A program made the translations under genes and the position numbers. DNA of 64,000 nucleotides from a bacterium (GTDB lineage Bacteria; Patescibacteriota; Minisyncoccia; UBA6257; 02-FULL-45-10c), in assembly GCA_030700025.1 (NCBI GenBank), contig JAUYKI010000017.1, positions 2,748 to 66,747 of the forward strand. Reading direction: 5' to 3'. The notes below the pieces were generated by a model. The model did no database searches. It worked only from the letters and a program-made list of their open reading frames with translations, and was not told the DNA's origin. Each line of letters starts with the position of its first letter. The stretch's first letter is position 1. Below are positions 17,631 through 63,279 of this stretch, one piece after another.

Positions 17631-18701
17631 TTAGATGCCGAGATAATCCAAGAATTTTCCAAGTTGGGCGTTTTTGGGGCTATGGCTGGTTTTTTCGTTT
17701 GGCGGATTAATAACCATAGATCCGCGAATCAGCTGGGTGTCCAGAAAAGCATCTTTCAGTTTTTTAAAAACTCCGGTTAATTTTTTGGTTTGGGATGTAA
17801 GGAAAAAACTGCTATTAGCAGAACTCCACAAAGCATAAGTATCAAAGCCTAGCGCTTTGGCGGCGGTAAATCCTAGAGGAATTTGATTGCGTTGTTTGAG
17901 CCGTCCGGTTTTTGGATCTTGCGTAGTTTCCACGATGTTTAATAATACTTTTCCCAATTCGGCGCTTTCCGGCTTGGCTCCGCCTTCTGCCATGCGTTTT
18001 TTGGCGGCTTCAATTCCGTTTAAAGATATTTGGACCAATCCTTTATTTTGAAGGCAGATATCCCATAAATTAACCTTTTTACCGCCGGATTCTTTTACCG
18101 TGATTTGTTTGGCCTCTTCTTCGGCAAATGGCTGGCGCGGATCCCGGCCCTCCTGGAAGAATTTGGCAATTAAGCTTAGTGGCAGGGCTTTATAGATTCC
18201 ATAAGGAGTCCGCCACCAGTCATTTTTTAAAAACTCTTCGTCAATCGGATAATCTAAATTATCTATTTGGGTTACAAACTCGGAAAAATTATCCAGCCAC
18301 TTTTCCTTTTTCAGCATTCCGGCTTTAGTCAGGGATTCATAAACAATTGCGGTGGCGGAAGTGGGCTTGCCTTGTTCCGGACCGTGATGGTCAAAGAAAA
18401 TACTGCCGTCTTCTTCCATGGTTAATTCCGGCTTGCCCCCGGTATCAATATGCACCGCGCCGGCCAGGTCTTTTCCTTTTGGCACGAAAGTTACCATTTT
18501 ATAATTAATGCCCGCTAAATCCATTAAAAAGACTCCGCCCATCGCGTCTAAGTCGGGCCGGAGCTTTAATTGGCTTTTTCCGCCTTCGTGGCGGAAATCA
18601 CCGTGGATAACCAGCTGGTCAAAGCCGGCCTTCAGGGTTTCCGCTACCCGTTCTAATGTTTTTTGCTCTGATTTTTCCGGATTGGCTTTAAATTGTTCCA
18701 T
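17631..18701 (-). CDS. Hypothetical protein, possibly a DHH-like phosphoesterase (weak).
   Basis: 356 aa with SD aaaggtgaggg. It contains FFDHHGP and HIDTGG, reminiscent of DHH motifs. No confident family assignment is possible by eye. Confidence 0.5.
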   Translation of the reverse strand: MEQFKANPEKSEQKTLERVAETLKAGFDQLVIHGDFRHEGGKSQLKLRPDLDAMGGVFLMDLAGINYKMVTFVPKGKDLAGAVHIDTGGKPELTMEEDGSIFFDHHGPEQGKPTSATAIVYESLTKAGMLKKEKWLDNFSEFVTQIDNLDYPIDEEFLKNDWWRTPYGIYKALPLSLIAKFFQEGRDPRQPFAEEEAKQITVKESGGKKVNLWDICLQNKGLVQISLNGIEAAKKRMAEGGAKPESAELGKVLLNIVETTQDPKTGRLKQRNQIPLGFTAAKALGFDTYALWSSANSSFFLTSQTKKLTGVFKKLKDAFLDTQLIRGSMVINPPNEKTSHSPKNAQLGKFLDYLGI

Positions 18702-19148
18702 CCCTCACCTTTAAAGAACTGCGACGCTATCGCAATTCTTGATTTTAATTAAATGACTTTTTATTGTTGAAAACATAGTTTTGAGTATTAACTTGGCTTC
18801 GGACGCATTATTGGTTCTTTAAGGGTGAGGGATTACTTTCTTTACGATAGCTTAAAACGGCTAACTTGGAAATGGGGGAATACATGGGGTACTTGACAAA
18901 ATAAGCCCTATATATTATCATATAAACTATGGAAATAAATTCCAATCGACAATTTAATATACAAGTTAAACCTCTTGGCACCCACTATGGGATGGTTTCG
19001 GTTTTTAGCCAAGGCGGTTTTTATATTAATTGGAGAATAGAGTAATTTAAACTTCAAAAGATATTGATCTTATTTAAAGAACGCCTCGGCTAGATAAACC
19101 GAGGCGTTTTGGTTTATCTAGAAAGCACCTTGAAAAGGAGAAAAGAAA

Positions 19149-19637
19149 ATGGACATCCGGGCAGTGATTCGCGGTGTCGGGCCGGACAAGAAGTTTCTGC
19201 TGGTTAGCTATAATTTGGTTTGGGGATTTAAGAGCGGAATACAGAACGGCGGACGGCTGATTATTTGCGCTGGCGATTCTAGAAGCGCCAGCTTAATGAG
19301 CGGAGAAGATAGGTTTGAAGCAGTAAGGCCCCGTTCCGAGTATGATGAGTTGGGATCTAGATTCGTTACCCCTTCGGGCCAGGAAGTTAGAAAGAGCGAC
19401 CTTGGGTTAGTAGTAGTTTACGCGGGATTCGATTTTAAGCTTGCCATAGATTGGGCAAGAATTTTAAAGAAGAATCGATCGATTATTGTCTGGGTCGTAG
19501 CTTGTGATTGTGACTGGGGAAGAAAGAAGAGGATGATAGAAGGAACCGATATTGAGTTAATAGAGGCACGGTGTGGCGGAGACTTTGAGATGGGAAATAT
19601 CGCGCGGGAGATATTGACTGCCACTAATCCAAATTAA
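19149..19637 (+). CDS. Hypothetical protein.
   Basis: 162 aa with SD aaggag. A terminator hairpin follows at 19644-19671. Confidence 0.55.
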   Translation: MDIRAVIRGVGPDKKFLLVSYNLVWGFKSGIQNGGRLIICAGDSRSASLMSGEDRFEAVRPRSEYDELGSRFVTPSGQEVRKSDLGLVVVYAGFDFKLAIDWARILKKNRSIIVWVVACDCDWGRKKRMIEGTDIELIEARCGGDFEMGNIAREILTATNPN

Positions 19638-19734
19638 GTTTGAAGCCGGGCATAATACCCGGCTTTTTTATTGACAGATTGATCGGGCCCATATATATTA
19701 ATTTGGCTACAAGAGCTTTGCGGGAGGTGGCGCA

Positions 19735-19974
19735 ATGGCAGTGGTTCACAAGAGAAATAAAGTTGCGGAAGCTCAGGAATTTTTGAATAGCGACGTTGCG
19801 AAGAGCCATGGACTTCGAATTATGAAATGGGATGGCAAAAAAGTTCTGGCATGGGATAGCCGAAGGCAAAAATGGACCATTGACGATTGCTTTCGGGGCG
19901 GACCACTATGGGAGGGCTTTGTACGGCTGGCATTCTATTTTCAACGAAAGAAGCCGTTTCAAGTTTCCATTTAA
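19735..19974 (+). CDS. Small hypothetical protein, 79 aa.
   Basis: SD ggaggtg lies 8 nt upstream of the ATG. A strong terminator follows at 19986-20017. Confidence 0.5.
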   Translation: MAVVHKRNKVAEAQEFLNSDVAKSHGLRIMKWDGKKVLAWDSRRQKWTIDDCFRGGPLWEGFVRLAFYFQRKKPFQVSI

Positions 19975-19985
19975 GATGGTATATC

Positions 19986-20017
19986 GCCCGCGGAATTCCG
20001 CGGGCATTTTTATTTTT
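19986..20017 (+). terminator. Rho-independent terminator.
   Basis: The perfect palindrome gcccgcggaattccgcgggc is followed by atttttattttt. Confidence 0.65.
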
Positions 20018-20029
20018 AATTGGCTTGTA

Positions 20030-20066
20030 TCGCGTTATGGGATTACTATTAGAATAGGTTCTATTA
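20030..20066. repeat. Solo 3' terminus of the family-1 element (gcgttatgggattactattagaataggttct) directly before a start codon.
   Basis: It matches gcgttatgggattattattgggataggttct at the ends of the copies at 6060-6093 and 44800-44831. Confidence 0.55.
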
Positions 20067-20905
20067 TGGAAAAGTTTATCGGATTAATTTTATTGGCTTT
20101 TGCCGTTGCCGCGGGAATCTTTATATTTTCCCGCGAGGGCGGTTTGTCCAAGTTGGCGGCTCCTTACACTGTTAAGTTGGAGCCGTATTCTTACCGGCAA
20201 AGATATTCGGATGCCGGAGCGGATCAGCCCTCTGGATCGGACTATAGCTCTTACGGCCAATCGGAAATTGAAAACAGAAAGTTGTTAACCATTTCTTCGT
20301 TCCGGCCAGCCAATAGTTATGTTTCTTATTCGGAGATAGTTTTAGATTCCAATTTGAACAGCGGCGAGACCGCGGACATTACCGGCTGGATCATTAAGGG
20401 TGAACACGGATCATTCACTATTCCGCGGGCGCAGGAAGTTTTTTCTTCCGGCGGAGTTGAGGGCAATATCGTGGCGCGTTCCCGGGACGCGATTTATCTT
20501 TATTCCGGCTTTGGACCGAAGGGCAATTTCCGTTTGAATAAATGCCTTGGTTACATAGAAGACGTTGCTCCGTTTACGCCGCCTCTGCCTAAAGATTGCC
20601 CGCAAATTTCCTGGTCGGAGATGCAGAGGTTCGGGGGTTATTGCCGGGATTATATTTCTTCGCTGGATACTTGCCAGACACCGAATGCTAATCCGCCGGT
20701 GCCCTTGGAAGATACGGCTTGCCACGCTTTTTTGCGGGATTTGAACTATGTCGGCTGTGTTGCGAATCATCGGAACGATCAGGATTTTCGTTCCAACGAA
20801 TGGAGGGTTTGGATGGGGGATCAGATGAATATCTTTGACCCAATTCACGATCGAATCCAGCTTTGGGATAAAAGCGGAAAATTGGTAGACGAATACATTT
20901 ATTAG
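20066..20905 (+). CDS. Secreted or membrane-anchored Cys-rich hypothetical protein.
   Basis: Signal/TM MEKFIGLILLAFAVAAGIFIF and multiple Cys residues are seen. The ORF-track extension to 19832 would overlap an upstream gene and terminator, so the start is taken at 20066. Confidence 0.6.
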   Translation: MEKFIGLILLAFAVAAGIFIFSREGGLSKLAAPYTVKLEPYSYRQRYSDAGADQPSGSDYSSYGQSEIENRKLLTISSFRPANSYVSYSEIVLDSNLNSGETADITGWIIKGEHGSFTIPRAQEVFSSGGVEGNIVARSRDAIYLYSGFGPKGNFRLNKCLGYIEDVAPFTPPLPKDCPQISWSEMQRFGGYCRDYISSLDTCQTPNANPPVPLEDTACHAFLRDLNYVGCVANHRNDQDFRSNEWRVWMGDQMNIFDPIHDRIQLWDKSGKLVDEYIY

Positions 20906-26656: not shown

Positions 26657-27073
26657 ATGAAGGAAGAAAATGACCTTTCCTACCTTCAGGCAGTAAAGGA
26701 AGACCTTAGCGATATTCCGATTATGGACTTCGGCAATCTGGCGCTTAGCGATGATTTAAAGATTAATACCCGGCAGACGATTTATACGGTTCGTTTTCTG
26801 GGCCCGCCTTCTCAAAAGAAACGCCTGGCCGGCATTCAAAGCACCGGCAAGCATCTTTTTGACGGTCGAGTTACATTGATTGGTTCGGAAGTAAAATCTT
26901 CTCCCGGCGGCGCGCTGACGGTTTTGGAAGGGGGATTGATGGTTGGATTTTCGGCTGTGTTCTTTGATATCGTTGAAGAAAGATTGTTGAAATTGCCGGT
27001 TACTCAGGAAGTTTGGCTGAACGGAAAAAGAATTTTGCCGGATTTCTCCAGAGTTCCCGCAAGGGAAAAATAA
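26657..27073 (+). CDS. Hypothetical protein.
   Basis: 138 aa with SD ggagggg. Confidence 0.5.
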   Translation: MKEENDLSYLQAVKEDLSDIPIMDFGNLALSDDLKINTRQTIYTVRFLGPPSQKKRLAGIQSTGKHLFDGRVTLIGSEVKSSPGGALTVLEGGLMVGFSAVFFDIVEERLLKLPVTQEVWLNGKRILPDFSRVPAREK

Positions 27074-27074: not shown

Positions 27075-27146
27075 TCCCGCTTAGAAGCAGGCCGCCCCAA
27101 GGTGGCTGTAGCCACTCGCTAAAAGCGAGGGCGGCTTCTAACGGGA
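27075..27146. repeat. Degenerate copy of the 'cccgttagaagc ... gcttctaacggga' palindromic element with a GC-rich hairpin interior and no start codon.
   Basis: The arms tcccgcttagaagc and gcttctaacggga flank ggccgccccaaggtggctgtagccactcgctaaaagcgagggcggc. Confidence 0.5.
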
Positions 27147-27762: not shown

Positions 27763-28041
27763 CGTAGGGGTCTGTCATAAAATTACTGGCTTAATTTGGA
27801 GGCCTGGATTTGAGACAGGTACGAGACGCGACGACGACAACGTGTCTGAATGAAGGACACGTTGAGGAGGAGTAACGAAGTAGCTGGCCAAAGATAGGCC
27901 TCCCCGAAGGGCCAAAGCATTTTATGGGCTGCGACTGCGTCACTCGTCGTCAATGTAGCTAAAGCTACAATCTCCTCCTCGTTTCTTGTCTCGCTCCAAA
28001 AATGCTATGGTAAATAAGTCATTAATTTTATGACAGACCCC
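27763..28041. repeat. Family-1-related structured element, copy 2, with a different terminal inverted repeat (ggggtctgtcataaaatta / taattttatgacagacccc).
   Basis: It shares the core cgacgacga...gttgaggaggagtaacgaag...ccaaag...aatttt...tcgtcgtc...gtagctaaagctaca with copies 1 and 3. Confidence 0.65.
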
Positions 28042-28957: not shown

Positions 28958-30130
28958 TTGAAAACTGATAAAAAGGCGGTTACGATGGAACCGAAAAAGG
29001 GCTTGCGTGATGTTCCGGCCGGACAGACCCGGCTTTGCTTGTTGGATGAAGCCAACAGCGAACTTTATTATTGCGGTTATTCTATCAGGGATTTAGTTGA
29101 GCATTATCCCTATGAAGCCGTGGCTTATTTGATGCTTCACGGCGAATTGCCTTCCGAGTCGGAATTAAAAATTTTCACCCGTCGCCTGGTGAATAACGCA
29201 TGGAATATGCCTCAAGTGGTAGTTAAGAGTTTGGAGTTAAAAACTCCATTCACTGATGCCCATCCGATGGATAAATTGTCACTGATAATCCGGGCTGACG
29301 GCAATACTCACGGCATTCCGTTTTCTACGCCATCGTTAGAGAATAATTTGGACTTAGCGAAATCTTTGATTGCCCGGTTGCCTTTAATGGTTGCTTTGCT
29401 GGGCGGCGCTAGCCGGAATTATTTTGACTATTTTGATCCAGACCGCACGCTGATGGAAAATTTTGTAGATTCTTTGCGGATCCCGAACGAAGGCGGTTTG
29501 GCAACGAAATTAATGAATGTCGCGTTTATTCTTTACGCGGAACATGAATTCAACGCCGGGTCTTTCGCGGTTCGGGTGGCAGCCAGCGCGCACACCGATA
29601 TTTATTCCGCGGTTTTGGGAGGATTAGGAACTTTGCGCGGTACTCGCCACGGCGGAGCCAATGAAGAAGTAATGAAGAAGATGCTGGAAATCGGAACACC
29701 GGAAAAAACGCGCGAATATTGCGACCGATTTTTGTCTCAGCCGGGAGCGCGCTTGCCGGGATTTGGCCACGCGGTTTATACCATCGGCGATCCGCGGGTA
29801 GCGGTTCTCCGCCCGCTGGTAAAAGATTTGTCGGTCCGAAAGAACGATATGCGCTGGTATGAAATTGCTGTCGCGCTGGAAGAATATATGGCGGAGCGTT
29901 CTCGGGGAAAGTCTAAGCCCTTGCCGGCTAACACTGACCTTTGGACGGCGCCGTTATATCACTTGCTGGGCATCCCGATTCGTCTTTTCACCCCGCTTTT
30001 CGCCGCCTCCCGGGTTTCCGGCTGGTGCGGACATTATTTGGAAGTGCGGCATGTTTACAACGAACCGATTCTTCGGCCGCGCGCCGAATATGTCGGATCC
30101 GCTCCTCGGAAAGTAATCCCTCACTCTTGA
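28958..30130 (+). CDS. Citrate synthase family protein (citrate/2-methylcitrate synthase-like).
   Basis: GFGHAVYTIGDPR and LMLHGELPS motifs are seen in a 390 aa protein. The last four codons and the stop codon come from a palindromic element. Confidence 0.75.
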   Translation: MKTDKKAVTMEPKKGLRDVPAGQTRLCLLDEANSELYYCGYSIRDLVEHYPYEAVAYLMLHGELPSESELKIFTRRLVNNAWNMPQVVVKSLELKTPFTDAHPMDKLSLIIRADGNTHGIPFSTPSLENNLDLAKSLIARLPLMVALLGGASRNYFDYFDPDRTLMENFVDSLRIPNEGGLATKLMNVAFILYAEHEFNAGSFAVRVAASAHTDIYSAVLGGLGTLRGTRHGGANEEVMKKMLEIGTPEKTREYCDRFLSQPGARLPGFGHAVYTIGDPRVAVLRPLVKDLSVRKNDMRWYEIAVALEEYMAERSRGKSKPLPANTDLWTAPLYHLLGIPIRLFTPLFAASRVSGWCGHYLEVRHVYNEPILRPRAEYVGSAPRKVIPHS

Positions 30131-30191
30131 AAGAATTAACCTCGCTTATAGCGAGGTTTTTTATAGCAACGTTATTTCAAAAGTGAGGGAT
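30116..30191. repeat. Palindromic element atccctcactcttgaa ... ttcaaaagtgagggat (76 nt). It overlaps the 3' end of the citrate-synthase-like gene and supplies IPHS and the stop codon.
   Basis: The inverted repeat has one mismatch and an inner hairpin cctcgcttatagcgagg. The same termini occur at 63107-63245 and 36742-36767. Confidence 0.7.
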
Positions 30192-30269
30192 TTATTTTGA
30201 AGTTGATTTTTATGGAATTTAGCATTAAACTATTCTCGTTCTTTAATAACGAGGTATGGAGGATGAAAC

Positions 30270-31586
30270 ATGTTGACTACTAAAAATCTGCTGAATCACT
30301 TAGTAAATTTTTCTCATGACCTCAAATACAAAGATCTGCCGCCGGAAGTTGTCCACGAAGCTAAGCGGCGCTTAATTGATTCTATGGCCTGCGCGATAGC
30401 TGGCTCGCATGATCCGGCCACGCTTTTACTTGCTAAAAACTCTTGCGAATCCATGGAAGAGAAAGCCTTCAGATTTACGCATTTAATCCGCGTACTGGAT
30501 TGGAACGATACCTATCTTTCCAAAGAGCCGGCTCATCCTTCTGATAATATCGGCGCCCTGCTCGCGCTTTGTAACTATGGCATTTCCGGAGAAGATTTTA
30601 TTACCGCCATGGTGCTGGCTTATGAAATCCAGTGCCGGTTCTGCGACGCGGCTTCGCTCCGTAAAAATGGCTGGGACCACGTTGCTTACGTTTCGTTAGC
30701 CACTGCGTTTGCCACGGCAAAAATCCTGAAACTCAACCGCGAAAAAATGACCCATGCCGCTTCGCTGGCTCTCCGCTGGATTCCGCTTCGCCAAGTGCGC
30801 GCCGGATCGGACCTTTCAATGTCAAAGGGGCTTTCGGCGGCAGAAGCGGTAAAATTCGGCGTTCATTCAGCTCAATTAGCTAATTGCGGAATTACCGGCC
30901 CAAGCGAAATGATGGAAGGACAATTTGGATTTATTAATCAAGCAACCGGCGAGCTGGATTTTTCCGCCTTTACTTCACTCGGTTCGGAATTCAAAATTCT
31001 GAAAACCCACATTAAACTTTATCCGGTGGAATACCATGCCCAAGCCGCAGTGGATGTGGCTCTGCAAATCCGAAAAACACTAAATGGACGAGTGGAGAAC
31101 ATTACTCGCCTTGACCTTGAATCCTATGAAGCATGCCGAGCCATTATTGCCGACAAAAACAAACGCCGGCCAGCCACTAAAGAATCTGCTGACCATTCCC
31201 TGTTTTATATCATGGCAGTTACTCTTTTAGACGGAGAAATGACCTTGAAGCAATACGCACCCGAAAGATACAATGATCCGGCAGTACTTCAGCTGATTGA
31301 TAAAATGAGCGACGTTCAAGAAACGCCAAAATTTAATGAAGCTTATCTCAATCGAGAAAAACCCGCTTTTCCGCTTCGTTGCAAAGTTATTGGCTACCCC
31401 ATTCCATATACGGTAGAGGTTGAATTTCCCAAGGGCCACTTTGCAAATCCTTTAACCGACGATGAATTAGTTGAAAAGTTTAAGGCCCTAACTAGCCAAG
31501 ATATAAATCCAGTTTCATTAAAATCGGGCCTGGAATATCTTTGGCACTTGGAAGACGAACCGCGCCTCGCTCCTGTAAAATTTTAA
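30270..31586 (+). CDS. MmgE/PrpD family protein (2-methylcitrate dehydratase-like).
   Basis: The N-terminal PrpD signature (LIDSMACAIAG) is seen in a 438 aa protein with SD ggagg. Confidence 0.8.
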   Translation: MLTTKNLLNHLVNFSHDLKYKDLPPEVVHEAKRRLIDSMACAIAGSHDPATLLLAKNSCESMEEKAFRFTHLIRVLDWNDTYLSKEPAHPSDNIGALLALCNYGISGEDFITAMVLAYEIQCRFCDAASLRKNGWDHVAYVSLATAFATAKILKLNREKMTHAASLALRWIPLRQVRAGSDLSMSKGLSAAEAVKFGVHSAQLANCGITGPSEMMEGQFGFINQATGELDFSAFTSLGSEFKILKTHIKLYPVEYHAQAAVDVALQIRKTLNGRVENITRLDLESYEACRAIIADKNKRRPATKESADHSLFYIMAVTLLDGEMTLKQYAPERYNDPAVLQLIDKMSDVQETPKFNEAYLNREKPAFPLRCKVIGYPIPYTVEVEFPKGHFANPLTDDELVEKFKALTSQDINPVSLKSGLEYLWHLEDEPRLAPVKF

Positions 31587-33060: not shown

Positions 33061-34599
33061 ATGGGACCGGAAGAAGCAGATCAGTTAGTTCAGAAATATT
33101 TTAAGCGAAAGGGATTGCCGTTAATGCCAGCAGTTACCTTTGATGATGTTTTAGTTCGGGAAGGAATTTCCAGCATTGCTAGCCGGAGCGACATTACTAA
33201 TTTAAAGGCTCAGCTGGCAAAAGATTTTTGGCTGAATATTCCGGTAGTGTCCGCTAATATGGACACGGTTACGGATTCGCGTATGGCAATTGCTTTGGCT
33301 CGGCTGGGCGGTATGGGTTTCATCCATCAGTTCGTTTCGCTGGAAGACCGGCTGGAAGAAGTCAGCAAGGTTAAGCGGGCGGACAATATGGTGATTGAAA
33401 ATCCGGCGACCATTCGTCCGGAAGCAACTTGGGCGGAAGCGCAAGCGGTAATGGCGGAACGGGAAATTTCCTGTTTGCTGGTTACTGACGCGCAAGGAAT
33501 TTTGGCCGGCATCTTAACGTCGCGCGATACTCAATTTTGTTCCGACCCCAACGCTTTAGTTGGAGATTTAATGACTCCGAAAACCAGAGACGGACACTTT
33601 GTTTTGCAAACTGCCCGTCCGGATATTTCCAATGAAGACGCGGAAAAAATGTTAAAGCGTTCCAAGGTAGAAAAACTTCCTTTAATAGATGATGAGGGCA
33701 AGGTGGTTGGATTGATTACGGCGAAAGATATTTTAAAGCGCCGGATGTTTCCCAACGCGGCCCGGGACGAAAAGGGCCAGCTGTTAGTTGGCGCTACTTT
33801 GCGGTTCAGCGGAAATTATTTGGAAGAAGCGAAAGCGTTGATCGACGCCGGAGCGGATGTATTGCTGTTAGATACGGCGCGAGCCAGTTCTTCATCAGAG
33901 GACGGAATTTTGGCGTCGCAGTATTTAACGCCCGGGAAAATTGTGGAATTAGCCGCGGAAAGAACCGCGAAAATTAAATACGTGTTTCCAAAAATAGTTT
34001 TAGTGGTTGGTAATACTGCCAATCCGGAAGCGGTGGCGCTTCTGGCAAGCCGTGGAGCGGATTGCGTTAAAATCGGAATTGGGCCGGGAGCGGGATGTAA
34101 GACTCAGGAAGTAGCCGGAATCGGTTCGCCTCAGCTTCACGCGATCGCGCAATGCGCGGCGGTGGCCAGAGAAATCGGAGTTTGTTTAATGGCTGACGGC
34201 GGAATTAGAAATGGCGGTTGCATGGTTAAAGCGCTAGTTGGCGGAGCAAATGTGGTGATGCTGGGAAGTTTGCTGGCGGGAACCGACAAATCTCCGGGCC
34301 TGCTGGTTTGGAATCGAAAGGAAAATAAACTGGTTAAGAAATACCGCGGTTCGGCATCCACTGAACATCAGCTGGATAGGATTAAAGTTGGGGATTTGCA
34401 CGCGGTTAGAACGTCAGAGGGCGAAGCCGGAGCGGTTCCTTACATGGGCACGACGGTTTCGCTGATTGATGATCTGCTTGGCGGATTGCGGTCGGGCATG
34501 AGTTATGTCGGCGCCCATAACCTAGAAGAGCTTTGGCAGTTCGGCAGATTTGTTTGGAGAACGCAGGCCGGAATTGAAGAAGGAAGACCCCGAATATAA
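33061..34599 (+). CDS. guaB: Inosine-5'-monophosphate dehydrogenase with a CBS pair.
   Basis: The IMPDH signature VKIGIGPGAGCKTQEVAGIG (catalytic Cys), a CBS pair insert and SD aaggag are seen. Confidence 0.85.
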   Translation: MGPEEADQLVQKYFKRKGLPLMPAVTFDDVLVREGISSIASRSDITNLKAQLAKDFWLNIPVVSANMDTVTDSRMAIALARLGGMGFIHQFVSLEDRLEEVSKVKRADNMVIENPATIRPEATWAEAQAVMAEREISCLLVTDAQGILAGILTSRDTQFCSDPNALVGDLMTPKTRDGHFVLQTARPDISNEDAEKMLKRSKVEKLPLIDDEGKVVGLITAKDILKRRMFPNAARDEKGQLLVGATLRFSGNYLEEAKALIDAGADVLLLDTARASSSSEDGILASQYLTPGKIVELAAERTAKIKYVFPKIVLVVGNTANPEAVALLASRGADCVKIGIGPGAGCKTQEVAGIGSPQLHAIAQCAAVAREIGVCLMADGGIRNGGCMVKALVGGANVVMLGSLLAGTDKSPGLLVWNRKENKLVKKYRGSASTEHQLDRIKVGDLHAVRTSEGEAGAVPYMGTTVSLIDDLLGGLRSGMSYVGAHNLEELWQFGRFVWRTQAGIEEGRPRI

Positions 34600-34711
34600 A
34601 TTTCTAATTACTAATTTCTAATTACTAATGACTAAGTTCAAAATTCAAATCCCGCAATTGCGGGATTTTTTATTTGAAAATACTTCAAAATTGATTTAAT
34701 ATATTTTCAAC

Positions 34712-36566: not shown

Positions 36567-36626
36567 AAATTTTCGCCTCGGCTTTTTGCCGGGGCTTTTT
36601 ATTTCTACGAAAGCAGTTTTTGAGAA

Positions 36627-36806
36627 AAGAAACTTTATTCTCCGTAGCGCGGGCTGAGCCTGCCTGCCGGTAGGCAGGGGCTGAGCGGGCAGGGTGTCCC
36701 GCGAAGCGGGACGAGCGAAGCCCGAGACCCAGTGAAAACTTCCCTCACTCTTGTACAAAAGTGAGGGACTGGGAGTTTGAACGGTAGCGGGAGAATAAAG
36801 TTTCTT
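36627..36806. mobile_element. Family-2 MITE-like element, copy B (180 nt, inverted relative to copy A), with a 17-bp TIR aagaaactttattctcc / ggagaataaagtttctt.
   Basis: Its reverse complement aligns with 11748-11890. It carries two nested palindromic inserts: ccctcactcttgtacaaaagtgaggg at 36742-36767 and cctgcctgccggtaggcagg. Confidence 0.75.
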
Positions 36807-36808
36807 TT

Positions 36809-37543
36809 CTAGCGTGTTTTAGCAATTACCAACGCGATTATTTTTTTGGCGCCGGCGGATTTTAAAGTTTTAGCGGCTTCGCGGATAGTGGCTCCGGAAG
36901 TGTGAACGTCGTCAACGAGAAGGATATTTTTTCCCACTATCAGTTCTGGGTAATTAACCGCGAAGCAGTTAATCACATTTTGCGCCCGTTCTTCATGATT
37001 CTTGGCAAGCGACTGGGTTTTAGTATTTTTAATTCTTTGAATCGGCTCCGTTAAATCTAATTTATAAAAATCAGCAACAATTTTCGCAATCAATTTTGCC
37101 TGATTAAATCCGCGTTCTTTTTCCCGATCTTCGTGAAGCGGGATTGGAACCACGGTAAAATTTCTAATATCTAAATCCAAATTTCTAAGATACGAGACTA
37201 GAATTTCGCCTAATGGCCTTTGAAGCCGCTGCCATTTTTTAAATTTAAATAATTTCAGCAAAGTCCGGATGGAATCGTTATCGTAATTAGTGGCGGCGGC
37301 CAAAAGATAAGGAGAATCTTTATGGCAGACCTTTTTATTATCCGCCAGGCGCAATCCGCAAACCGGGCAAAAAAGCGAAGTATTGAGGCGGATGCCGGCC
37401 CAGCACTCCGGGCAAAGATCGCCTTCAGCGTTTTTTTGGCAGTTTAAGCAGAGCGGAGGAAAGAGGATGTCCCACAGCCAGGTTTTCATTTTTTGGAGAT
37501 AGCTCATGTCTGTTATACTAATAATAGATTTAGAATAAGGCAA
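36809..37543 (-). CDS. comFC: ComF family protein (double zinc ribbon plus phosphoribosyltransferase domain).
   Basis: N-terminal Cys clusters (CLNCQ...CPECW...CPVCG) and the PRTase motif ILLVDDVHTSGATI are seen. Confidence 0.75.
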   Translation of the reverse strand: MPYSKSIISITDMSYLQKMKTWLWDILFPPLCLNCQKNAEGDLCPECWAGIRLNTSLFCPVCGLRLADNKKVCHKDSPYLLAAATNYDNDSIRTLLKLFKFKKWQRLQRPLGEILVSYLRNLDLDIRNFTVVPIPLHEDREKERGFNQAKLIAKIVADFYKLDLTEPIQRIKNTKTQSLAKNHEERAQNVINCFAVNYPELIVGKNILLVDDVHTSGATIREAAKTLKSAGAKKIIALVIAKTR

Positions 37544-37750
37544 TGGATTCCAATAACTAATTTCTAATATCTAATTTCTAATAAAATGACCGAAATCACA
37601 AACCACAAGCACCAAATCACAAACAAGCACCAATGACCAAAATCATAAATTTAAAACCCGTTTGGAATTTCTATTATTTGAATTTAGAATTTGTTTGTAA
37701 TTTGAGATTTGTAATTTGGAATTTTATCAGAAATTGTAAATTGTAAATTT

Positions 37751-38812
37751 ATGTCTTTTTTTGAAAAACTTCTTCATAACAAAACTTATTTCGGCGTGGA
37801 TATCGGCACGACCTCTATTAAAATTGTGGAATTAAAACAGGGAGGCCAGAAGCCGGGCCTGAAAGATTATTGCGTTTTGGAAAGCTACGCGCATCTGGAA
37901 AAATTTAACGCGGCCATTCAAACCAGCAATTTAAAAATGCTGGACCAGAAAACCGCGGAATATTTGAAAACCGCGATTCAGCAGATAGAGTCTAAAGACA
38001 TTGAAGCCATTGCTTCGGTTCCGACTTTTTCCGCTTTTACTACTTTGATTGAAATGCCGGCTATGTCGGAGGCGGATACGAGCAAGGCCATGGCATTCCA
38101 GGTTAGGCAGTATGTTCCTTTGCCGATTTCGGAAGTAACCACCGACTGGATAAAAATTATGGAAAAAAAGGATTCTGCCGGCAATTTAATCCAGCAAGTT
38201 CTGCTGATTTCCATTCCGAATGAAATTATTAATAAGTATAAAAATGTTTTTCAGTTGGCGGGCGTGAAATTAATCGCTTTAGAAGTGGAAGGATTGAGTT
38301 TGGCGCGGGCGCTGACTCTTGGTTCGCCGGAAGTTTCGCTGATTGTGGATATCGGATCCCGGTCTACCAGTATTCTTATCGCCCAAAACGGCTTTTTGAA
38401 GTTTGTCAGCCAGACGGATTTCGCCGGCAGTTCCTTAACGCAGAATTTGGCTGCCGGAACCAGCCTTTCTCCGCAGGAGGCCGAAGAAATGAAACGGCAG
38501 AGGGGCATTGTCTCGGGGGAGTTATCCACACTGCTGATACCGGTGCTGGATGCTATAATAAATGAGACGAGACTAGTCAAGGAAGATTTTGAAAAGAACT
38601 ATAAAGAGCCGGTCCAAAAGCTTATTTTGACCGGAGGCGGGGCTAATCTGAGCGGCATTGAGAAGTACTTTGGCGAGCAATTGGGCTTGCCGGCCGTTAA
38701 GGGCAATCCGCTGTCACGGGTGGATTATCCGGAAGAATTAAACCCCTTGCTTGGAGAATTGAATAATACTTTGGCGATTGCCGCCGGACTCGCTTTAAGG
38801 GATGTACACTAG
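37751..38812 (+). CDS. pilM: Type IV pilus assembly protein PilM (actin-like ATPase fold).
   Basis: FGVDIGTTSIKIVEL N-terminus. A 353 aa protein with PilM architecture. Confidence 0.8.
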   Translation: MSFFEKLLHNKTYFGVDIGTTSIKIVELKQGGQKPGLKDYCVLESYAHLEKFNAAIQTSNLKMLDQKTAEYLKTAIQQIESKDIEAIASVPTFSAFTTLIEMPAMSEADTSKAMAFQVRQYVPLPISEVTTDWIKIMEKKDSAGNLIQQVLLISIPNEIINKYKNVFQLAGVKLIALEVEGLSLARALTLGSPEVSLIVDIGSRSTSILIAQNGFLKFVSQTDFAGSSLTQNLAAGTSLSPQEAEEMKRQRGIVSGELSTLLIPVLDAIINETRLVKEDFEKNYKEPVQKLILTGGGANLSGIEKYFGEQLGLPAVKGNPLSRVDYPEELNPLLGELNNTLAIAAGLALRDVH

Positions 38813-38830
38813 TTAAAAAAATAAATTGTA

Positions 38831-39373
38831 ATGGCGCTATTAAATCAAAAACCAATGGAGCACTACGTGCCGGAAACACCGGTTGCCGGAACACCGTGGC
38901 GCCTTTTTACTTACGCCGGATTGGCATTTTTGGCGTCTTTGTTGATTTATCTGGGATTAAGCATGGGCTATAGCGCTTACTTAAGTTCCCGGATTACCGC
39001 GGTGGAACAGCAATTAAAACAATTGGGAACTTCCATTTCCAAAGAAGATCAGGATAAGTTTGTCCGATTTTATTCCCAGCTGGTTAACTTTAATAAGCTT
39101 TTAGATAATCATATTTTATCCGCCGATACATTTTCTTTATTGGAAAAAAATACCAATCAAAAAGTCCGTTATACTAATTTTGATTTAAAAATTGACGAGC
39201 GGAAGCTTACTTTAGACGGTTCGGCTCTTTCTTATGAAATTTTGGCGCAACAGCTGGCGTCTTTTGCCGCCGATCCCGGCGTAGAGAACTACATGCTTAA
39301 TCAATCGCAAATGAGCGATGGAAGCGTAAAATTCAAGGCGGTATTAATATTAAAAAAGGAAGTTTTAAAATAA
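38831..39373 (+). CDS. pilN: PilN-like bitopic pilus assembly protein.
   Basis: Single N-terminal TM followed by a coiled coil. Position after pilM supports the call. Confidence 0.55.
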   Translation: MALLNQKPMEHYVPETPVAGTPWRLFTYAGLAFLASLLIYLGLSMGYSAYLSSRITAVEQQLKQLGTSISKEDQDKFVRFYSQLVNFNKLLDNHILSADTFSLLEKNTNQKVRYTNFDLKIDERKLTLDGSALSYEILAQQLASFAADPGVENYMLNQSQMSDGSVKFKAVLILKKEVLK

Positions 39374-39380
39374 GATGAAT

Positions 39381-39505
39381 CCCACACATAACAAAGACTA
39401 TAGGATATTTAAGCTAATAACTATGATAGTAGAATTAAAATGTCACATTAAATTAAAAGGCAAGGATTTGCGGAAAACTTCGCAGTCTTTGTTATGTGTG
39501 GGATG
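39381..39505 (+). promoter_or_regulatory. Inverted repeat (19-bp arms cccacacataacaaagact / agtctttgttatgtgtggg) enclosing the pilO 5' region. The right arm contains the pilO start codon.
   Basis: The arms sit about 85 nt apart. The ATG codons at 39494 and 39503 both lie within or adjacent to the right arm. Confidence 0.5.
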
Positions 39506-40078: not shown

Positions 40079-40101
40079 AATTTATTAGAGATTTAAATAA
40101 T

Positions 40102-40392
40102 ATGGCAATTACATTTGAAAAAGAAAAAAAACCGTTTGGCATTGTTCGGCTTGTTATCGTGATAGCGGCGGTGGTGTTTATTGTCGGCGGAGCCTACTTT
40201 TTATTCTTCGCTTCAACTCCGGGCATAGAAGCTTTAGTTCCTTCGGAACAAAGGTTAGCCACCCAGATTTCTAAATTAGAATTGAATACCCAGCCGGCCG
40301 TGGAAGCTTTTACTTCTAACCGCCTTAAAAGATACGCCGGTCCGCCTTCGGTTGGACAAGTTGGCAGATTAAATCCATTTGTCCGATTTTAG
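40102..40392 (+). CDS. Small N-terminally anchored protein, hypothetical (pilus-associated by position).
   Basis: 96 aa with one TM helix. Confidence 0.4.
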   Translation: MAITFEKEKKPFGIVRLVIVIAAVVFIVGGAYFLFFASTPGIEALVPSEQRLATQISKLELNTQPAVEAFTSNRLKRYAGPPSVGQVGRLNPFVRF

Positions 40393-40394
40393 GA

Positions 40395-40522
40395 ATGGAT
40401 CCCGTTAGAGATAGGCCGTCAAAGGCGGCCGTAGCTCGTCCGTTCTAATGGCGCTCAGAGTTTAAAATAAAAACAAAGGTTAATAATATAAATCTAATTT
40501 AGTTATCTCTAACGGGATGGAT
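40395..40522. repeat. 5'-UTR palindromic element atggatcccgttagag ... ctctaacgggatggat. Its right arm supplies the pilB start codon.
   Basis: The 16-bp arms sit about 95 nt apart and are of the same family as 1846-1963. Confidence 0.6.
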
Positions 40523-42250
40523 GCTCAAGTTTTACTTAAAGCTCTTGTTGATAAGGAACTTCTAAAACAGGATCAGGCGGATAAGCTGATTCAGGAATCT
40601 TCGGCTGGGCAAAAATCCGCTGAAGATTTAATTTACGAAAACCGGCTGGTGGACGAAACCGAAGTGGCGAAAACCAAAAGCCAGCTTTTAAAAATACCTT
40701 ATAAGAAAATTTCGGCGGATACTCTGGATAAAGAATTTTTAAAAGTTATTCCGATTGAAACCGCCCAAACTTATAAAATAATTCCTATTTCCCGGACGGA
40801 AAATATGCTGGTGGTGGGAATGGTGAATCCGGACGACCAAAAAGCCCAGGACGCGCTCCGGTTTGTCGCTAAGCAATTGCACTCCAATCTTGGAGTTTAT
40901 TTGATTTCACACGGCGATTTGGACGCAGTCTTAAAAAAATATTCTCCGTTTAAAGATGAAGTAGAAGCGGCAGTGCGGGCTTTGGGGACTAGGCCGGGCA
41001 GGAAAGTCGGCCAGGCAATTCAACTGGAAGAGGGAACCGCGGTTACGGAAGAAGCGCCGGTAATTAAAATTGTCGCTTCAACGCTTAGAGAAGCGGTCAA
41101 CGTCGGAGCTTCGGACATTCACGTTGAGCCAGAGCGGGAAAAATTCCGGATTCGTTTCCGGATTTCCGGAGATTTGCAGACCATCAGCGAAATGCCGATT
41201 GAATTGCACCAGCCGATAGTTTCCCGCATTAAAGTTATGTCCAAGTTAAAATTAGATGAAAACCGCGTTCCGCAAGACGGCCGGTTTCGCAGCCAGGTAT
41301 CGGGCCGGGACATTGATTTCCGGATCGCGACTTTTCCAACTCCAGCCGGAGAAAAAGTGGCAATCCGGGTTCTGGATTCTTCTACCGGCTTACGGACTTT
41401 AAATGAATTGGGATATAGCGATCGGAATGTAAAAATTGCCATGGAGGCGATTGAGCGCCCGTTTGGCACCGTGGTCATTACCGGTCCGACCGGTTCGGGA
41501 AAATCCACCACTCTTTATTCGTTGATGCAGATTTTAAATCAGCCGGACGTTAACATCGTCAGCTTGGAAGATCCGGTGGAGTATTATATTGACGGCGCCA
41601 ACCAGTCGCAGGTTCGGCCGGAAATCGGCTATGATTTCGCCGCCGGTTTGCGGCAAATTTTGCGGCAAGACCCGGACGTGATTATGGTTGGAGAAGTGCG
41701 GGACGTGGAAACTGCCACTTTGACCATCCACGCCGCTTTAACCGGACACATCGTATTAACCACCTTGCACACTAATAATGTAGTGGGCGTAGTGCCCCGC
41801 TTATTGGATTTAAAAGTAGACGCGTTTTTATTGCCGCCGGCGGTAAATTTGATGGTGGCCCAGCGCTTGCTTTCCAAGCTTTGCCCGAAATGCAAAAAGC
41901 CCGAACCTGCTCCGGGAAATATCGCCGAAATGATCAAAAAAGAATTGGAAAAATTGCCGGCAGACGTCAGGGCGGAATTAAAATCTAAAGAACCGTATAA
42001 AATCTATCGGTCGGCCGGATGCGCTTCTTGTAAAAATAAAGGGACAGCCGGGCGGATGGCCATTTCGGAGCTTTTAAAAATGACTCCACAATTGTCGGAA
42101 ATTATCAGCGCCGGCCCGACCGAGAACCGGATTTTAGAAGAGGCTAAGCGCCAAGGAATGGTAACGATGCGGCAAGACGGAATTATTAAAGCCCTGGACG
42201 GATTATTGGGAATGGAGGAGGTATTGCGAGAGACTGCGGAGCTGACCTAA
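40517..42250 (+). CDS. pilB: Type IV pilus assembly ATPase PilB (GspE family) with an N-terminal GspII domain and a C-terminal zinc-binding domain.
   Basis: Walker A GPTGSGKST, Asp and His boxes, and C-terminal CPKC...CASC are seen. Confidence 0.9.
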   Translation: MDAQVLLKALVDKELLKQDQADKLIQESSAGQKSAEDLIYENRLVDETEVAKTKSQLLKIPYKKISADTLDKEFLKVIPIETAQTYKIIPISRTENMLVVGMVNPDDQKAQDALRFVAKQLHSNLGVYLISHGDLDAVLKKYSPFKDEVEAAVRALGTRPGRKVGQAIQLEEGTAVTEEAPVIKIVASTLREAVNVGASDIHVEPEREKFRIRFRISGDLQTISEMPIELHQPIVSRIKVMSKLKLDENRVPQDGRFRSQVSGRDIDFRIATFPTPAGEKVAIRVLDSSTGLRTLNELGYSDRNVKIAMEAIERPFGTVVITGPTGSGKSTTLYSLMQILNQPDVNIVSLEDPVEYYIDGANQSQVRPEIGYDFAAGLRQILRQDPDVIMVGEVRDVETATLTIHAALTGHIVLTTLHTNNVVGVVPRLLDLKVDAFLLPPAVNLMVAQRLLSKLCPKCKKPEPAPGNIAEMIKKELEKLPADVRAELKSKEPYKIYRSAGCASCKNKGTAGRMAISELLKMTPQLSEIISAGPTENRILEEAKRQGMVTMRQDGIIKALDGLLGMEEVLRETAELT

Positions 42251-42284
42251 CCAATAACCGCCGACTAATGATATTATAAAGTGT

Positions 42285-44557: not shown

Positions 44558-44559
44558 TG

Positions 44560-45382: not shown

Positions 45383-45389
45383 GGATTTT

Positions 45390-60924: not shown

Positions 60925-62373
60925 ATGCATTTACATGACTTAACTATAAAAAAATTCCACGAAGGTTTGGTGAATAAAGAATTTTCCGCGCATGAAATGG
61001 CGCAGGAAGTTTTTGATTTAATTAAAGCGGAGGATGGAAAAATTCACGCGTATTTAAGTTTGAATGAGCGAATGGCGTTACGGCAAGCGGAAGAAGCCGA
61101 TTTAAAAATTGCCAAAAATGAGCCGGTGGGTTTTTTAACCGGCGCGCTTATGGCGATTAAAGATAATATTTTAATTGAGGGACTGCCGTGCACTTCGGCC
61201 TCTAAAATTTTAGAAAATTATACTGCCAGCTATGACGCAACGGTGATTAAGAAATTAAAATCCAGCGGCGCCGTATTTTTAGGTAAAACTAATATGGATG
61301 AATTCGCCATGGGTTCGTCTACGGAAAATTCCGCATTTGGGCCAACCAAGAATCCCCATGATTTGACTAGAGTTCCGGGGGGATCGTCCGGCGGTTCAGC
61401 AGCGGCAGTGGCCAGTCATATGGCTGTGGCGGCGCTGGGTTCGGACACCGGCGGTTCTATCCGCCAGCCTGCGGCCTTTTGCGGAGTTGTCGGCCTAAAG
61501 CCTACCTATGGCGCGGTTTCCCGTTATGGAGTGACGGCGATGGCTTCCAGCTTGGATCAGATCGGACCCTTTACGAAAACCGTGGAAGACGCGGCGATTT
61601 TATTTAATGAAATAAAAGGAGTGGATGCCATGGATTCCACAAGTTCGCCACAAGCTAGCGAGATTAAAGAAGAAGATTTATTAAAACCCAAGCTGGAAGA
61701 TATTCGAAAATTGCGGATAGGCATTCCGAAAGAATATTTCGTGGAAGGGCTTTCCGCGGAAATTGGCAGCGCCGTAGAAAAAGCCATTCAAGATATTAAA
61801 AGCTTGAAAGTAGAAATCAAAGAAATCAGCCTGCCTCACACGAAATACGCGCTTTCTTGTTATTATATTATTATGCCGGCGGAAGTGAGTTCCAACCTGG
61901 AACGATTTGAGGGGATTCGCTATGGCAGCCGCCAATCGGCGGAAAAATTGATAGATTTATATAAGAAAAATCGGGAAGCCGGATTCGGAGATGAATCCAA
62001 GCGCAGAATTTTATTAGGAACTTTCGTTCTGTCTTCCGGCTACTATGACGCTTATTATGCCAAGGCTCAAAAAGTCAGGCGATTAATTGCCCAAGACTTT
62101 GACCAGGTATTTAAGGAAGTAGATTTGGTGCTGACGCCGGTTACGCCGACTCTGCCGTTTAAGTTCGGAGAAAAAACCGATAATCCATTGGAAATGTATC
62201 TTTCCGACGCGTTTACTATTCCGGTGAACTTAGCCGGTTTGCCGGCGATGTCTTTGCCGGTTAATCAAACTAAAAAAGATAAATTGCCAGTCGGCTTTCA
62301 GCTGATTGGCCGGCATTTTAAAGAGGCGGATATTTTAGGATTAGGGCAGTATTACGAAAAATTATCCCGTTAG
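60925..62373 (+). CDS. gatA: Glutamyl-tRNA(Gln) amidotransferase subunit A (amidase signature family).
   Basis: The amidase signature GGSSGGSAAAVA and the Ser-cisSer-Lys triad context are seen. Length is 482 aa. Confidence 0.9.
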   Translation: MHLHDLTIKKFHEGLVNKEFSAHEMAQEVFDLIKAEDGKIHAYLSLNERMALRQAEEADLKIAKNEPVGFLTGALMAIKDNILIEGLPCTSASKILENYTASYDATVIKKLKSSGAVFLGKTNMDEFAMGSSTENSAFGPTKNPHDLTRVPGGSSGGSAAAVASHMAVAALGSDTGGSIRQPAAFCGVVGLKPTYGAVSRYGVTAMASSLDQIGPFTKTVEDAAILFNEIKGVDAMDSTSSPQASEIKEEDLLKPKLEDIRKLRIGIPKEYFVEGLSAEIGSAVEKAIQDIKSLKVEIKEISLPHTKYALSCYYIIMPAEVSSNLERFEGIRYGSRQSAEKLIDLYKKNREAGFGDESKRRILLGTFVLSSGYYDAYYAKAQKVRRLIAQDFDQVFKEVDLVLTPVTPTLPFKFGEKTDNPLEMYLSDAFTIPVNLAGLPAMSLPVNQTKKDKLPVGFQLIGRHFKEADILGLGQYYEKLSR

Positions 62374-62486
62374 AAGCCGCGATCGCTTTAATTAATAATA
62401 TTATTTCCATTTATTATGCATGGTCGTTATTATAAAAATATATTACGTAGAATCGCTTTGATCGCGATCTGCTTCTAACGGGATGG
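62365..62486. repeat. 5'-UTR palindromic element tcccgttagaagccgcgatcgc ... gcgatcgcgatctgcttctaacgggatgg. Its left arm overlaps the gatA stop and its right arm supplies the next gene's start codon.
   Basis: A roughly 22-bp inverted repeat with a TAGAAT-like -10 box inside. It is of the same family as 1846-1963 and 40395-40522. Confidence 0.6.
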
Positions 62487-63121
62487 CAAAACCACCAGAA
62501 ACAAGCCCTCCTCCTTCCGGATTAGATTTTATAATCTTAATTTTTCTTTTCATGGCGATCTTGCCTATGATCGGAGGATTTTTGGTTTATTTAGGCGATC
62601 CGAGCGGCTTACTGACCCGGATAAAAGAATTTTTGGCTCCCTACCTGCTTAATAATTTATGGTGGATGAAAATTGTATCGGTTTTAATATCCGGATTATT
62701 CGTCTGGGGAATAGCCCATATTTTATCTAAATTGAATTACGTGAATCTGCGAACCGAACAATTTTTAAATATTTTGGGCAGTTCGGGATTAAGTCGGCGC
62801 CGGTCTTTGCGCGCCTGGAGGCAGATTCAAGCGAGATTGGCGGTTGAAGATCCCCAGCAATGGAAAATAGCTATTTTAGAAGCGGATGAGATTTTAAACG
62901 AAGTTCTAAAATTATCGGGTTATTTGGGAAAAATGGAGGATAAGCTGGATTTAATTACTCCAGCGCAGTTGGCCAGCATTGAAGACATTAAAATAGCGCA
63001 TCGGATTCGTAATCAGATTTCCGGCAGCCCGGCCTTTGAATTATCGCGGGAAGTCGCCGAAAGAACCGCTCATATTTACAGAAGGGCGTTTGTGGAAACG
63101 AATTTAATCCCTCACTCTTGA
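62483..63121 (+). CDS. Membrane protein, hypothetical. The C-terminal IPHS and stop codon come from a palindromic element.
   Basis: 212 aa with 2-3 TM helices. It ends in aatccctcactcttga, the same sequence that ends the gene at 28958-30130. Confidence 0.5.
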   Translation: MAKPPETSPPPSGLDFIILIFLFMAILPMIGGFLVYLGDPSGLLTRIKEFLAPYLLNNLWWMKIVSVLISGLFVWGIAHILSKLNYVNLRTEQFLNILGSSGLSRRRSLRAWRQIQARLAVEDPQQWKIAILEADEILNEVLKLSGYLGKMEDKLDLITPAQLASIEDIKIAHRIRNQISGSPAFELSREVAERTAHIYRRAFVETNLIPHS

Positions 63122-63245
63122 AGCGCTGCGATTTCTGAACGCTTGTTGTAATATACTGTTTTTTATCCCCCAGACTTTATTTACGGATATTTAATGCCCC
63201 ATAGAGAAATCAACTAGGCGTTTCGGCGCTTCAAAAGTGAGGGAT
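63107..63245. repeat. Palindromic element atccctcactcttgaagcgc ... gcgcttcaaaagtgagggat (139 nt). It is the larger member of the IPHS-stop family.
   Basis: The 20-bp inverted repeat has one mismatch. The termini are identical to those of 30116-30191. Confidence 0.7.
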
Positions 63246-63279
63246 AAAAAACTCCGCAATCAGCAGAGTTAGTTGTTAT

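Follow-up and report, generated by a model that had tools for sequence, protein, structure and literature searches.

Small palindromic elements provide terminal codons and stop codons at gene ends in a Patescibacteria genome

Within a stretch of 64 kb from a Patescibacteria genome (contig JAUYKI010000017.1 of assembly GCA_030700025.1, positions 2,748 to 66,747), in the following called the window and being the scope of all window counts, of the gene map and of the protein scans, a family of small inverted-repeat elements delimited by CCCTCAC and GTGAGGG is found at the ends of genes. The names borne by the closest named homologues point to an uncultured bacterium of the Patescibacteria group. 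The CCCTCAC…GTGAGGG element is present in this genome and base-precisely absent from a close relative, and where it lies in the appropriate frame shortly upstream of a gene's 3' end, it replaces the last few native codons by Pro-His-Ser and a TGA stop codon. A sister family with an ATCCC…GGGAT foot does likewise to gatA, using TAG as the stop codon, which shows the CCCTCAC case to be one instance of a general habit of the genome. Taken together, these elements are probably non-autonomous and hairpin-dependent mobile elements, similar to miniature inverted-repeat transposable elements (MITEs) and to repetitive extragenic palindromic (REP) doublets forming hairpins (REPINs), which are active or have recently been mobile and survive only at the gene junctions of a compact genome, with ~86% of the window being coding.

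Two unrelated genes in the window end with the same 16 nucleotides, AATCCCTCACTCTTGA, located at 30115-30130 and 63106-63121 and reading I-P-H-S-stop, with the frame ATC CCT CAC TCT TGA at both gene ends and the preceding context AAT CCC…. As the original prediction had stated, and in agreement with an inverted-repeat scan, this shared ending constitutes the left arm of an inverted repeat with the arms ATCCCTCACTCTTGAA and TTCAAAAGTGAGGGAT, which extends over 76 nt at 30116-30191 and over 139 nt at 63107-63245 when the flanking AT is included. The elements proper, copy 1 (30118..30189, 72 nt) and copy 2 (63109..63243, 135 nt), are both located on the forward strand. The proposal that the element donates the last four codons together with the stop codon has, on the other hand, to be narrowed to the three codons P-H-S and the stop; the Ile codon is native host sequence, since the flanking AT is already present in the empty sites. 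Independent Logan contigs from sample SRR13727534 (L003, L133 and L134) are 100% identical to the window over four elements, so that the elements are not an assembly artefact. For the comparison of empty sites, a close relative with ~82% DNA identity (~18% diverged) was available from the Logan runs SRR22387938 and SRR22388086, with contig L119 covering the sites 62366 and 63109, contig L120 the site 18702 and contig L001 the synthase site (84% identical).

Copy 2 terminates the gene of a 212-amino-acid membrane protein (62483..63121) without a Pfam match, to which its left arm contributes P-H-S-stop (63110-63121). In the relative, the empty site in L119 reads TTTAAT|TAGCGA|ATAAAAAACTCC, encoding …N-L-I-S-E-stop, compared to TTTAAT[CCCTCAC…GTGAGGG]ATAAAAAACTCC in the window. 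The reading ATT AGC GAA TAA AAA ACT of L119 has its equivalent in ATAAAAAACT, which directly follows GTGAGGG in the window, and by this comparison the former TAA stop of the gene persists as a relic just past the right arm (63245..63247, forward strand). Breakpoints of copy 2 versus the relative were placed by BLAST at 63108|63244, and because of the empty-site comparison at 63109 the inserted unit is CCCTCAC…GTGAGGG (63109-63243). The net change in the membrane protein is consequently from SE-stop to PHS-stop. All of the ten orthologues considered end in NLI-x-E(E), while the window protein ends in NLIPHS; the sole other NLIPHS protein, P0122, was left out of the ten as a shorter gene call with 99% identity that probably derives from the same organism.

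At copy 1, the affected gene (28958..30130) encodes a citrate/2-methylcitrate synthase (Pfam Citrate_synt, E = 1e-99), which receives CCT CAC TCT TGA (P-H-S-stop, 30119-30130) from the left arm. The closest orthologue, P0001 with 91% identity, agrees with the window protein through …GSAPRK and then ends with ISVL-stop, where the window protein ends with VIPHS-stop. An IPHS end occurs in none of the 60 synthase orthologues and in none of the 10 membrane protein orthologues. Copy 1 is absent from the 84%-identical relative L001 and present identically in L003. Homology to the relative ends at …GAAA and restarts in a T-rich stretch just past the right arm, with ~62 nt in the relative that correspond to nothing in the window, which makes the history of this site less clean. 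That the insertions have remodelled protein C-termini, as originally proposed, is nevertheless borne out by the differing ends of the orthologues and by the DNA of the relative, which does not contain the element. The synthase gene adjoins a MmgE/PrpD-family gene (28958-31586 in total), the two being separated by 139 nt that include the element and a terminator-like hairpin; in a 68% relative (L002), the synthase and the MmgE/PrpD-family genes overlap (GTGA).

Two additional copies reside in the window. Copy 4 (18702..18831, minus strand; 18700-18833 with flanks) had been overlooked in the original prediction and was revealed by the inverted-repeat scan. It possesses the variant arms ATCCCTCACC[T/C]TTAAAGAAC, reading CCCTCACCCTTAAAGAAC / GTTCTTTAAAGGTGAGGG on the minus strand, and its right end runs as GGG|ATG into the start codon of the gene 17631..18701 (minus strand). 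At this site, the relative L120 reads gaaaataat|ATGgaac and the window gaaagtaat[element]ATGgaac (minus strand). The minimal copy of 26 nt, CCCTCACTCTTG-TA-CAAAAGTGAGGG (36742..36767, forward strand), had correctly been recognized as lying inside a MITE, the host element being the MITE-like inverted repeat 36623-36810 with the minimal copy at the hairpin apex; the sibling element 11741-11896 contains only ctcgcc at the equivalent place. The host element and its sibling are the two copies of an inverted-repeat element of ~150-190 nt with the ends AGAAA…TTATTCTCC / GGAGAATAA…TTTCT, of which the copy 36623-36810 overlaps the stop codon of the gene 36809..37543 (minus strand).

The arm consensus of the family, (AT)CCCTCAC[T/C][C/T]TT[G/A], is based on the four window copies and five metagenome loci. 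Copies range in size from 26 to 135 nt, with arms CCCTCACTCTTG… / …CAAAAGTGAGGG conserved for 12-16 nt and a variable interior of 2 to 111 nt. All copies, copy 4 included, carry a C in one arm and a T in the other arm at the same position, so that one strand has a C·A mismatch where the other forms a G·U pair. Most copies are flanked by AT on both sides, the insertion sites being AT|AT at gene junctions, and a (G)TAAT left flank is recurrent, with GTAAT occurring in two window copies and in the metagenome locus L127. The CTCTTG arm is positioned 5' relative to the direction of the neighbouring gene in five out of five determinable cases (P ~0.06; suggestive only). In the window, the 13-mer with at most two mismatches was matched 7 times versus 0.94 expected, the 8-mer TCCCTCAC 9 times versus 0.89 expected and the paired-arm pattern 3 times versus 0.00 expected.

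Scanning of metagenomes for paired arms recovered 12 loci. Five distinct loci, L123, L125, L127, L131 (identical to L129 on the other strand) and L132, display the same C/T asymmetry, with stems that stop at CCC/GGG, each then followed by A. In L125, a diverged copy (CCCTTCAC…GTGAAGGG with a T-run) is located in the loop of another copy (score 33 versus a shuffle maximum of 20), and in L127 the element directly follows the TAA stop codon of a gene. Six symmetric matches (L121, L122, L124, L126, L128 and L130) were treated as chance terminator hairpins and not as family members, since in most of them the stem continues beyond CCC/GGG into unrelated sequence. When the 16-mer ATCCCTCACTYTTGAA, a pattern too short for this purpose, was compared with a 596-Gb genome collection, the matches listed were only single chance matches in unrelated taxa; the paired-arm pattern with two gap ranges gave zero matches in viral contigs. 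The elements have no coding capacity, with no copy containing an open reading frame (ORF), and match no Rfam family, microRNA precursor models as hairpin look-alikes scoring only far below threshold.

A variant of the element had also been proposed within ligA at 58135-58156. The palindrome, CCCTCACGAC-TG-GTCGTGAGGG, is in frame, but it is located at 58133-58154 and is not a copy of the element. It encodes P-S-R-L-V-V-R-G, which aligns residue for residue with IPARLEVRGEVF of Escherichia coli LigA (PDB 2owo) within the conserved motif IPxRLxVRGEVF. As this is native coding of a conserved LigA motif, and as one extra TCCCTCAC is within the chance expectation, family membership of the ligA palindrome is ruled out. 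It is a curious joint coincidence that this perfect 10-bp palindrome with a CCCTCAC heptamer directly follows a tandem AAATTAG-type heptamer repeat (58092-58154 for both); the tandem repeat encodes a 4-residue insertion, EIRNSKLE versus HGEN in E. coli.

Folding of the long copies into stable hairpins is predicted at -38 to -49 kcal/mol with z-scores from -5.2 to -7.5 (copy 1 -38.5 kcal/mol, z = -6.25; copy 2 -49.1 kcal/mol, z = -5.95). The stem extends past the shared arm by complementary sequence specific to each copy, which adds at least 3 bp in 6 of 9 copies (P ~1e-9). Upon foot-registered alignment of 10 copies, 91% of the cells are paired and both sides have changed in 11 of 20 pairs; the resulting covariation score of 0.284, compared to 0.065 in shuffles, is reached by none of 500 shuffles, and in slid controls the paired share drops to 34-56%. 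In all nine CCCTCAC copies, an invariant C·A leaves the mismatch position unpaired. That the hairpin doubles as a transcription terminator, a question raised with the original prediction, can be affirmed only in part. Of the copies, copy 1 alone contains a terminator, its interior holding a canonical terminator-like stem-loop, AACCTCGCttaTAGCGAGGTT followed by TTTTAT (30138..30158, forward strand), with a 9-pair stem, 5 G-C pairs and a T-run, whereas ATTTATTTT comes after its outer stem. Copy 2 has no terminator of its own and adjoins the native terminator of the convergent gene; neither copy 2 nor copy 4 has arms that combine a G+C-rich stem with a T-run, and most copies are without a T-run. 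An ancestral origin of the inner terminator of copy 1 was considered and dropped as evidence, its likeness to the terminator in L001 consisting mostly of the T-run (p ~0.005).

A census of long-stem inverted repeats in the window extends these findings to several families that share the architecture AT[CCC…GGG]AT. The CCCGTTAGA family comprises five copies, with 8 arm matches versus 1.14 expected; four of the five directly precede a start codon and the fifth starts 2 nt after a TAA stop codon. All five are located on the forward strand. The copy at 62366..62482, CCCGTTAGAAGC…GCTTCTAACGGG, lies between gatA (60925..62373) and the ATG at 62483; its left arm provides gatA with TCC CGT TAG (S-R-stop) and its right arm, …CTAACGGG|ATG, abuts the next start codon. 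In the relative L119, gatA and the next gene overlap (CTA TAATGG) and no element is present, with breakpoints at 62365|62483. Because the relative lacks the element at gatA, the end of GatA can be concluded to have changed from …EKL-stop to …EKLSR-stop. The copies at 1853..1957 and 40401..40516 both have ATGGAT on either side, the right ATGGAT being the start of glycyl-tRNA synthetase (M-D-K) in the first case, where the NCBI protein MDP3999695.1 equally begins at the ATG following the copy, and in the second case the start of the gene 40517..42250 for an ATPase of the type II secretion system/type IV pilus (T2SS/T4P) group. The copy at 27076..27145, whose left arm contains a 1-nt insertion, is the one that starts 2 nt after the TAA stop codon, here of the gene 26657..27073, and of a copy truncated at the edge of the window only the right arm (…GGCTCTAACGGG, 1..68) is included, which adjoins the start codon ATG (69) of the gene 69..1781. 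A CCCACAC…GTGTGGG element (39381..39502, forward strand) that differs from CCCTCAC by a compensated T-to-A stem change is located between the TAA stop codon of 38831..39373 and the next ATG (39503), which the NCBI annotation uses as start as well; its flanks are ATGAAT / ATGAAA. In total, a real ATG start comes after 7 of the 11 CCC…GGG-footed elements in the window, without a gap in six cases and with one intervening base in the seventh, and for five of these genes the start codon in the NCBI annotation is exactly the ATG adjoining the element or located close after it. Ends lying within 1-2 nt of a start or stop codon are likewise seen in the repeat families GAACCTATC… and GGAGAATAAA….

If the elements are hairpin-dependent mobile elements, the enzyme that mobilises them would act in trans from a gene elsewhere in the genome. 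Transposition would probably proceed via a folded single-strand hairpin and not by classical double-strand cut-and-paste, a route suggested by the compensated stems, the invariant mismatch, the minimum of 26 nt, the copies in the loops of other hairpins and the empty sites without clear duplication. Selection in the compact genome would purge all insertions but those at stop/start junctions, where the early in-frame stop codon of the arm and the intact downstream ATG would keep both genes working; a terminator might be brought incidentally by some copies. Several observations weigh against this interpretation. The interiors of the long copies are unrelated to one another, which a simple copy-and-paste family would not predict. 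In the 51-gene map of the window (50 proteins assessed by Pfam, the ligase via solved structures), no transposase, recombinase or HUH enzyme is encoded, and no autonomous element with CCCTCAC arms is seen within the window. No unambiguous target-site duplication is discernible; the AT beside the elements may represent a 2-bp duplication, belong to the repeat or be the target, and the ATGGAT on both sides of two CCCGTTAGA copies misfits a reading without duplication. Equally, the covariation could stem from a palindrome-generating mechanism and not from selection, since each sequence is a palindrome, and the metagenome loci L123 and L132, as uncertain members, could be chance hairpins.

One alternative is a classical MITE, that is, a deletion derivative of an insertion sequence with a DDE transposase, which moves as double-stranded DNA via its terminal inverted repeats and duplicates AT as a 2-bp target, or a 6-bp target in the sister family. 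The presence of several small copies with terminal inverted repeats and no coding capacity conforms to such an origin, as do the AT on both sides of most copies, the ATGGAT direct repeats at two CCCGTTAGA copies, the ATGAAT/ATGAAA at the CCCACAC copy and the fixed difference between left and right arm, which is usual for the ends of insertion sequences. However, both AT dinucleotides pre-exist in the relative at all three usable empty sites (63109, 18702 and 62366), where the extra change needed amounts to 0, 1 and 6 nt without duplication compared to 2, 3 and 8 nt with AT duplication; copy-specific compensatory stem extensions are unexpected if only protein-binding ends matter; and no parent insertion sequence with the same ends was seen within the window. 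An element of 26 nt with a 2-nt interior is also very small for a double-strand synaptic complex. A classical DDE-type MITE is hence considered rather unlikely, retaining its share of probability because ATGGAT repeats surround two sister copies. Very unlikely appears the possibility that the hairpins are not mobile but native functional RNA or DNA signals under selection, such as terminators, mRNA-stabilising or RNase III sites, or stop-start coupling devices at the stem foot. Stem covariation with the conserved mismatch, the folding z-scores of the long copies, the canonical terminator in copy 1, the ATG after 7 of 11 elements and the consistent orientation of the CTCTTG arm would all accord with function; yet the hairpins are base-precisely absent from the ~18%-diverged relative, in which the same genes overlap (TAATG) or end normally, in-situ evolution would hardly arrive at identical 16-nt arms beside unrelated genes, copies are nested in other repeats and the T-run is missing from most copies. 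Some inserted copies may nevertheless have acquired a secondary use. Coincidence, by which the 16-mer and the IPHS ending would have arisen by chance or represent native C-termini, has the shortness of the shared sequence and nothing else in its favour, and is refuted as extremely improbable by match counts far above the shuffled expectation, no orthologue ending in IPHS and additional copies in the window and in metagenomes. Integron attC sites were dismissed as the arms misfit RYYYAAC/GTTRRRY and no arm occurs singly, and pairs of DNA uptake sequences as these would be perfect repeats without a fixed mismatch. In extension of the favoured reading of hairpin-dependent mobile elements, the ATCCC…GGGAT-footed families (CCCTCAC, CCCACAC, CCCGTTAGA and possibly CCCGGTATTACA with the foot ATGCCC) might form one Patescibacteria superfamily of structure-dependent hairpin transposons without target duplication that integrate specifically at AT|AT in stop/start junctions, being tolerated or kept because the stem sets the upstream stop codon beside the downstream ATG and so preserves translational coupling of once-overlapping genes (TAATG). 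This proposal is unlikely as it stands; if true, it would turn the elements into mobile intergenic punctuation as opposed to plain junk insertions.

Other repeats are dispersed over the window. An inverted-repeat family (A)GAACCTATC[C/T]CAATAATA… of ~270-290 nt is present at 5803-6092 and 44559-44830, with single ends at 20038-20062 and 57122-57146; one copy stops 2 nt before the start codon of methionyl-tRNA synthetase (MetRS) and another begins 2 nt past a stop codon. A hairpin element CCCGGTATTACAACTTTGATCG… at 15029-15164 with the flanks ATG/TAT has its right end one base before the GlmS start at 15166 (the same start in the NCBI annotation). The ends of a 275-nt inverted-repeat element at 27767-28041 begin with GGGGTCTGTCAT and resemble the Tn3-family terminal repeat, GGGGTCTGACGC, so that it may be a miniature element derived from Tn3. 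In intergenic regions, tandem heptamer-like repeats (TTCTAAT/TACTAAT, AAATTAG) are found at 3358-3401, 8448-8580, 34588-34649, 37155-37188, 37548-37581 and 37683-37759. Between the orthologues of 17631..18701 and 19832..20905, the relative L120 (550-644) has ~95 nt and the window ~1.35 kb (18860-20057), the extra stretch holding an unannotated ORF of 162 amino acids (19149..19637, no Pfam match) and the repeat end 20038-20062. Three large adjacent repeat-protein genes (InlB B-repeat-like, Kelch and LVIVD), in which the DNA repeats with a period of 144 nt, occupy 48077-55103 and adjoin a type IV pilus gene cluster (37751-47806).

Tiny palindromic repeats reshape gene ends in a streamlined Patescibacteria genome, citrate/2-methylcitrate synthase and GatA being examples of the core enzymes affected. 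In such genomes, a short difference at the C-terminus or an unusual intergenic hairpin may consequently mark the scar of an insertion and not an adaptation, and gene callers may place starts and stops wrongly there. How hairpin elements without target duplication move, and whether translational coupling can be maintained by a stem when an insertion separates two genes, are questions for which the elements offer a tractable case through their conserved mismatch, compensatory stems and exact abutment to start codons. Some features make the case moderately more interesting: several families share the hairpin foot, the mismatch is conserved, no clear duplication accompanies the insertions, and stop codons are bridged exactly to start codons.

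Regarding known systems, a full-text literature search found no paper on MITEs in Patescibacteria. With MITEs in general, the elements have in common small non-coding copies with shared terminal inverted repeats that are dispersed (four in 64 kb) and differ in presence and absence, with base-precise empty sites in relatives. Palindrome-associated elements derived from IS200/IS605 have separate subterminal hairpins, no terminal inverted repeats and insert 3' of a fixed target of 4-5 nt without duplication, whereas the ends described here are inverted copies that form one hairpin; the only likenesses are the apparent lack of duplication and the recurrent (G)TAAT left flank. The small dispersed repeats (SDRs) of cyanobacteria, said to have been described by Elhai et al. 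2008, are reportedly palindromic units of 21-27 nt that occur nested in their own copies, within mini-transposons and beside tandem repeats of heptamers. The window presents each of these three settings as well, a resemblance only, as the SDR sequence is unrelated. SDRs are reported as confined to Nostocaceae (PMC5861425), and Elhai et al. 2008 is cited there and in PMC3116915.

In our comparison, REPINs appear as the closest architectural match. REPINs have conserved arms and a poorly conserved spacer that needs to form a hairpin, with compensatory changes being common (PMC3116915), and inverted arms, a poorly conserved spacer and compensatory changes equally characterize the elements in the window. 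Mobilised by a REP-associated tyrosine transposase (RAYT), REPINs are also non-autonomous, located near gene ends, inserted into or next to one another and devoid of a classical target duplication. On the other hand, each REP arm is a short imperfect palindrome, REPINs are extragenic and normally supply no codons, and the defining feature of the system is a RAYT gene with the repeat at its flanks. The arm ATCCCTCACTCTTGAA has no internal self-complementarity, with arm-to-arm pairing alone being predicted, so that the elements do not qualify as REP sequences, the arms not being themselves palindromic, and within the 64-kb window no protein has a Pfam match to RAYT (Y1 HUH transposase).

Fusions of MITEs with ORFs have been reviewed for Correia, ERIC and Rickettsia palindromic elements (RPEs), and transcripts of the Correia/NEMIS elements of Neisseria and of RPEs form long stem-loops that affect neighbouring mRNAs (PMC2229807). 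Correia elements differ from the elements described here by 24-bp ends and a TA duplication, the flank here being AT, and RPEs are inserted inside genes and translated in full, where here three codons and a stop codon alone are contributed. In Coxiella burnetii, all functional genes affected by QMITE1 and QMITE2 are hit at the 3' end, which the MITEs overlap by 1-50 bp, and the element supplies the last residues and/or the stop codon; protein length is little changed, and roles as terminator and in RNase III processing have been proposed (PMC5896051). Like the elements in the window, the QMITEs are small non-coding inverted repeats that form long hairpins at gene 3' ends. Unlike them, they belong to another phylum, have an unrelated sequence, possess direct repeats and measure 100-400 bp, and neither abutment to start codons nor a minimal form of 26 nt has been reported for them. 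The CCCTCAC elements accordingly appear, as judged from these comparisons, to be a new family, while the donation of gene ends by such repeats is already known from other bacteria through the Coxiella QMITEs, the Correia elements and the RPEs.

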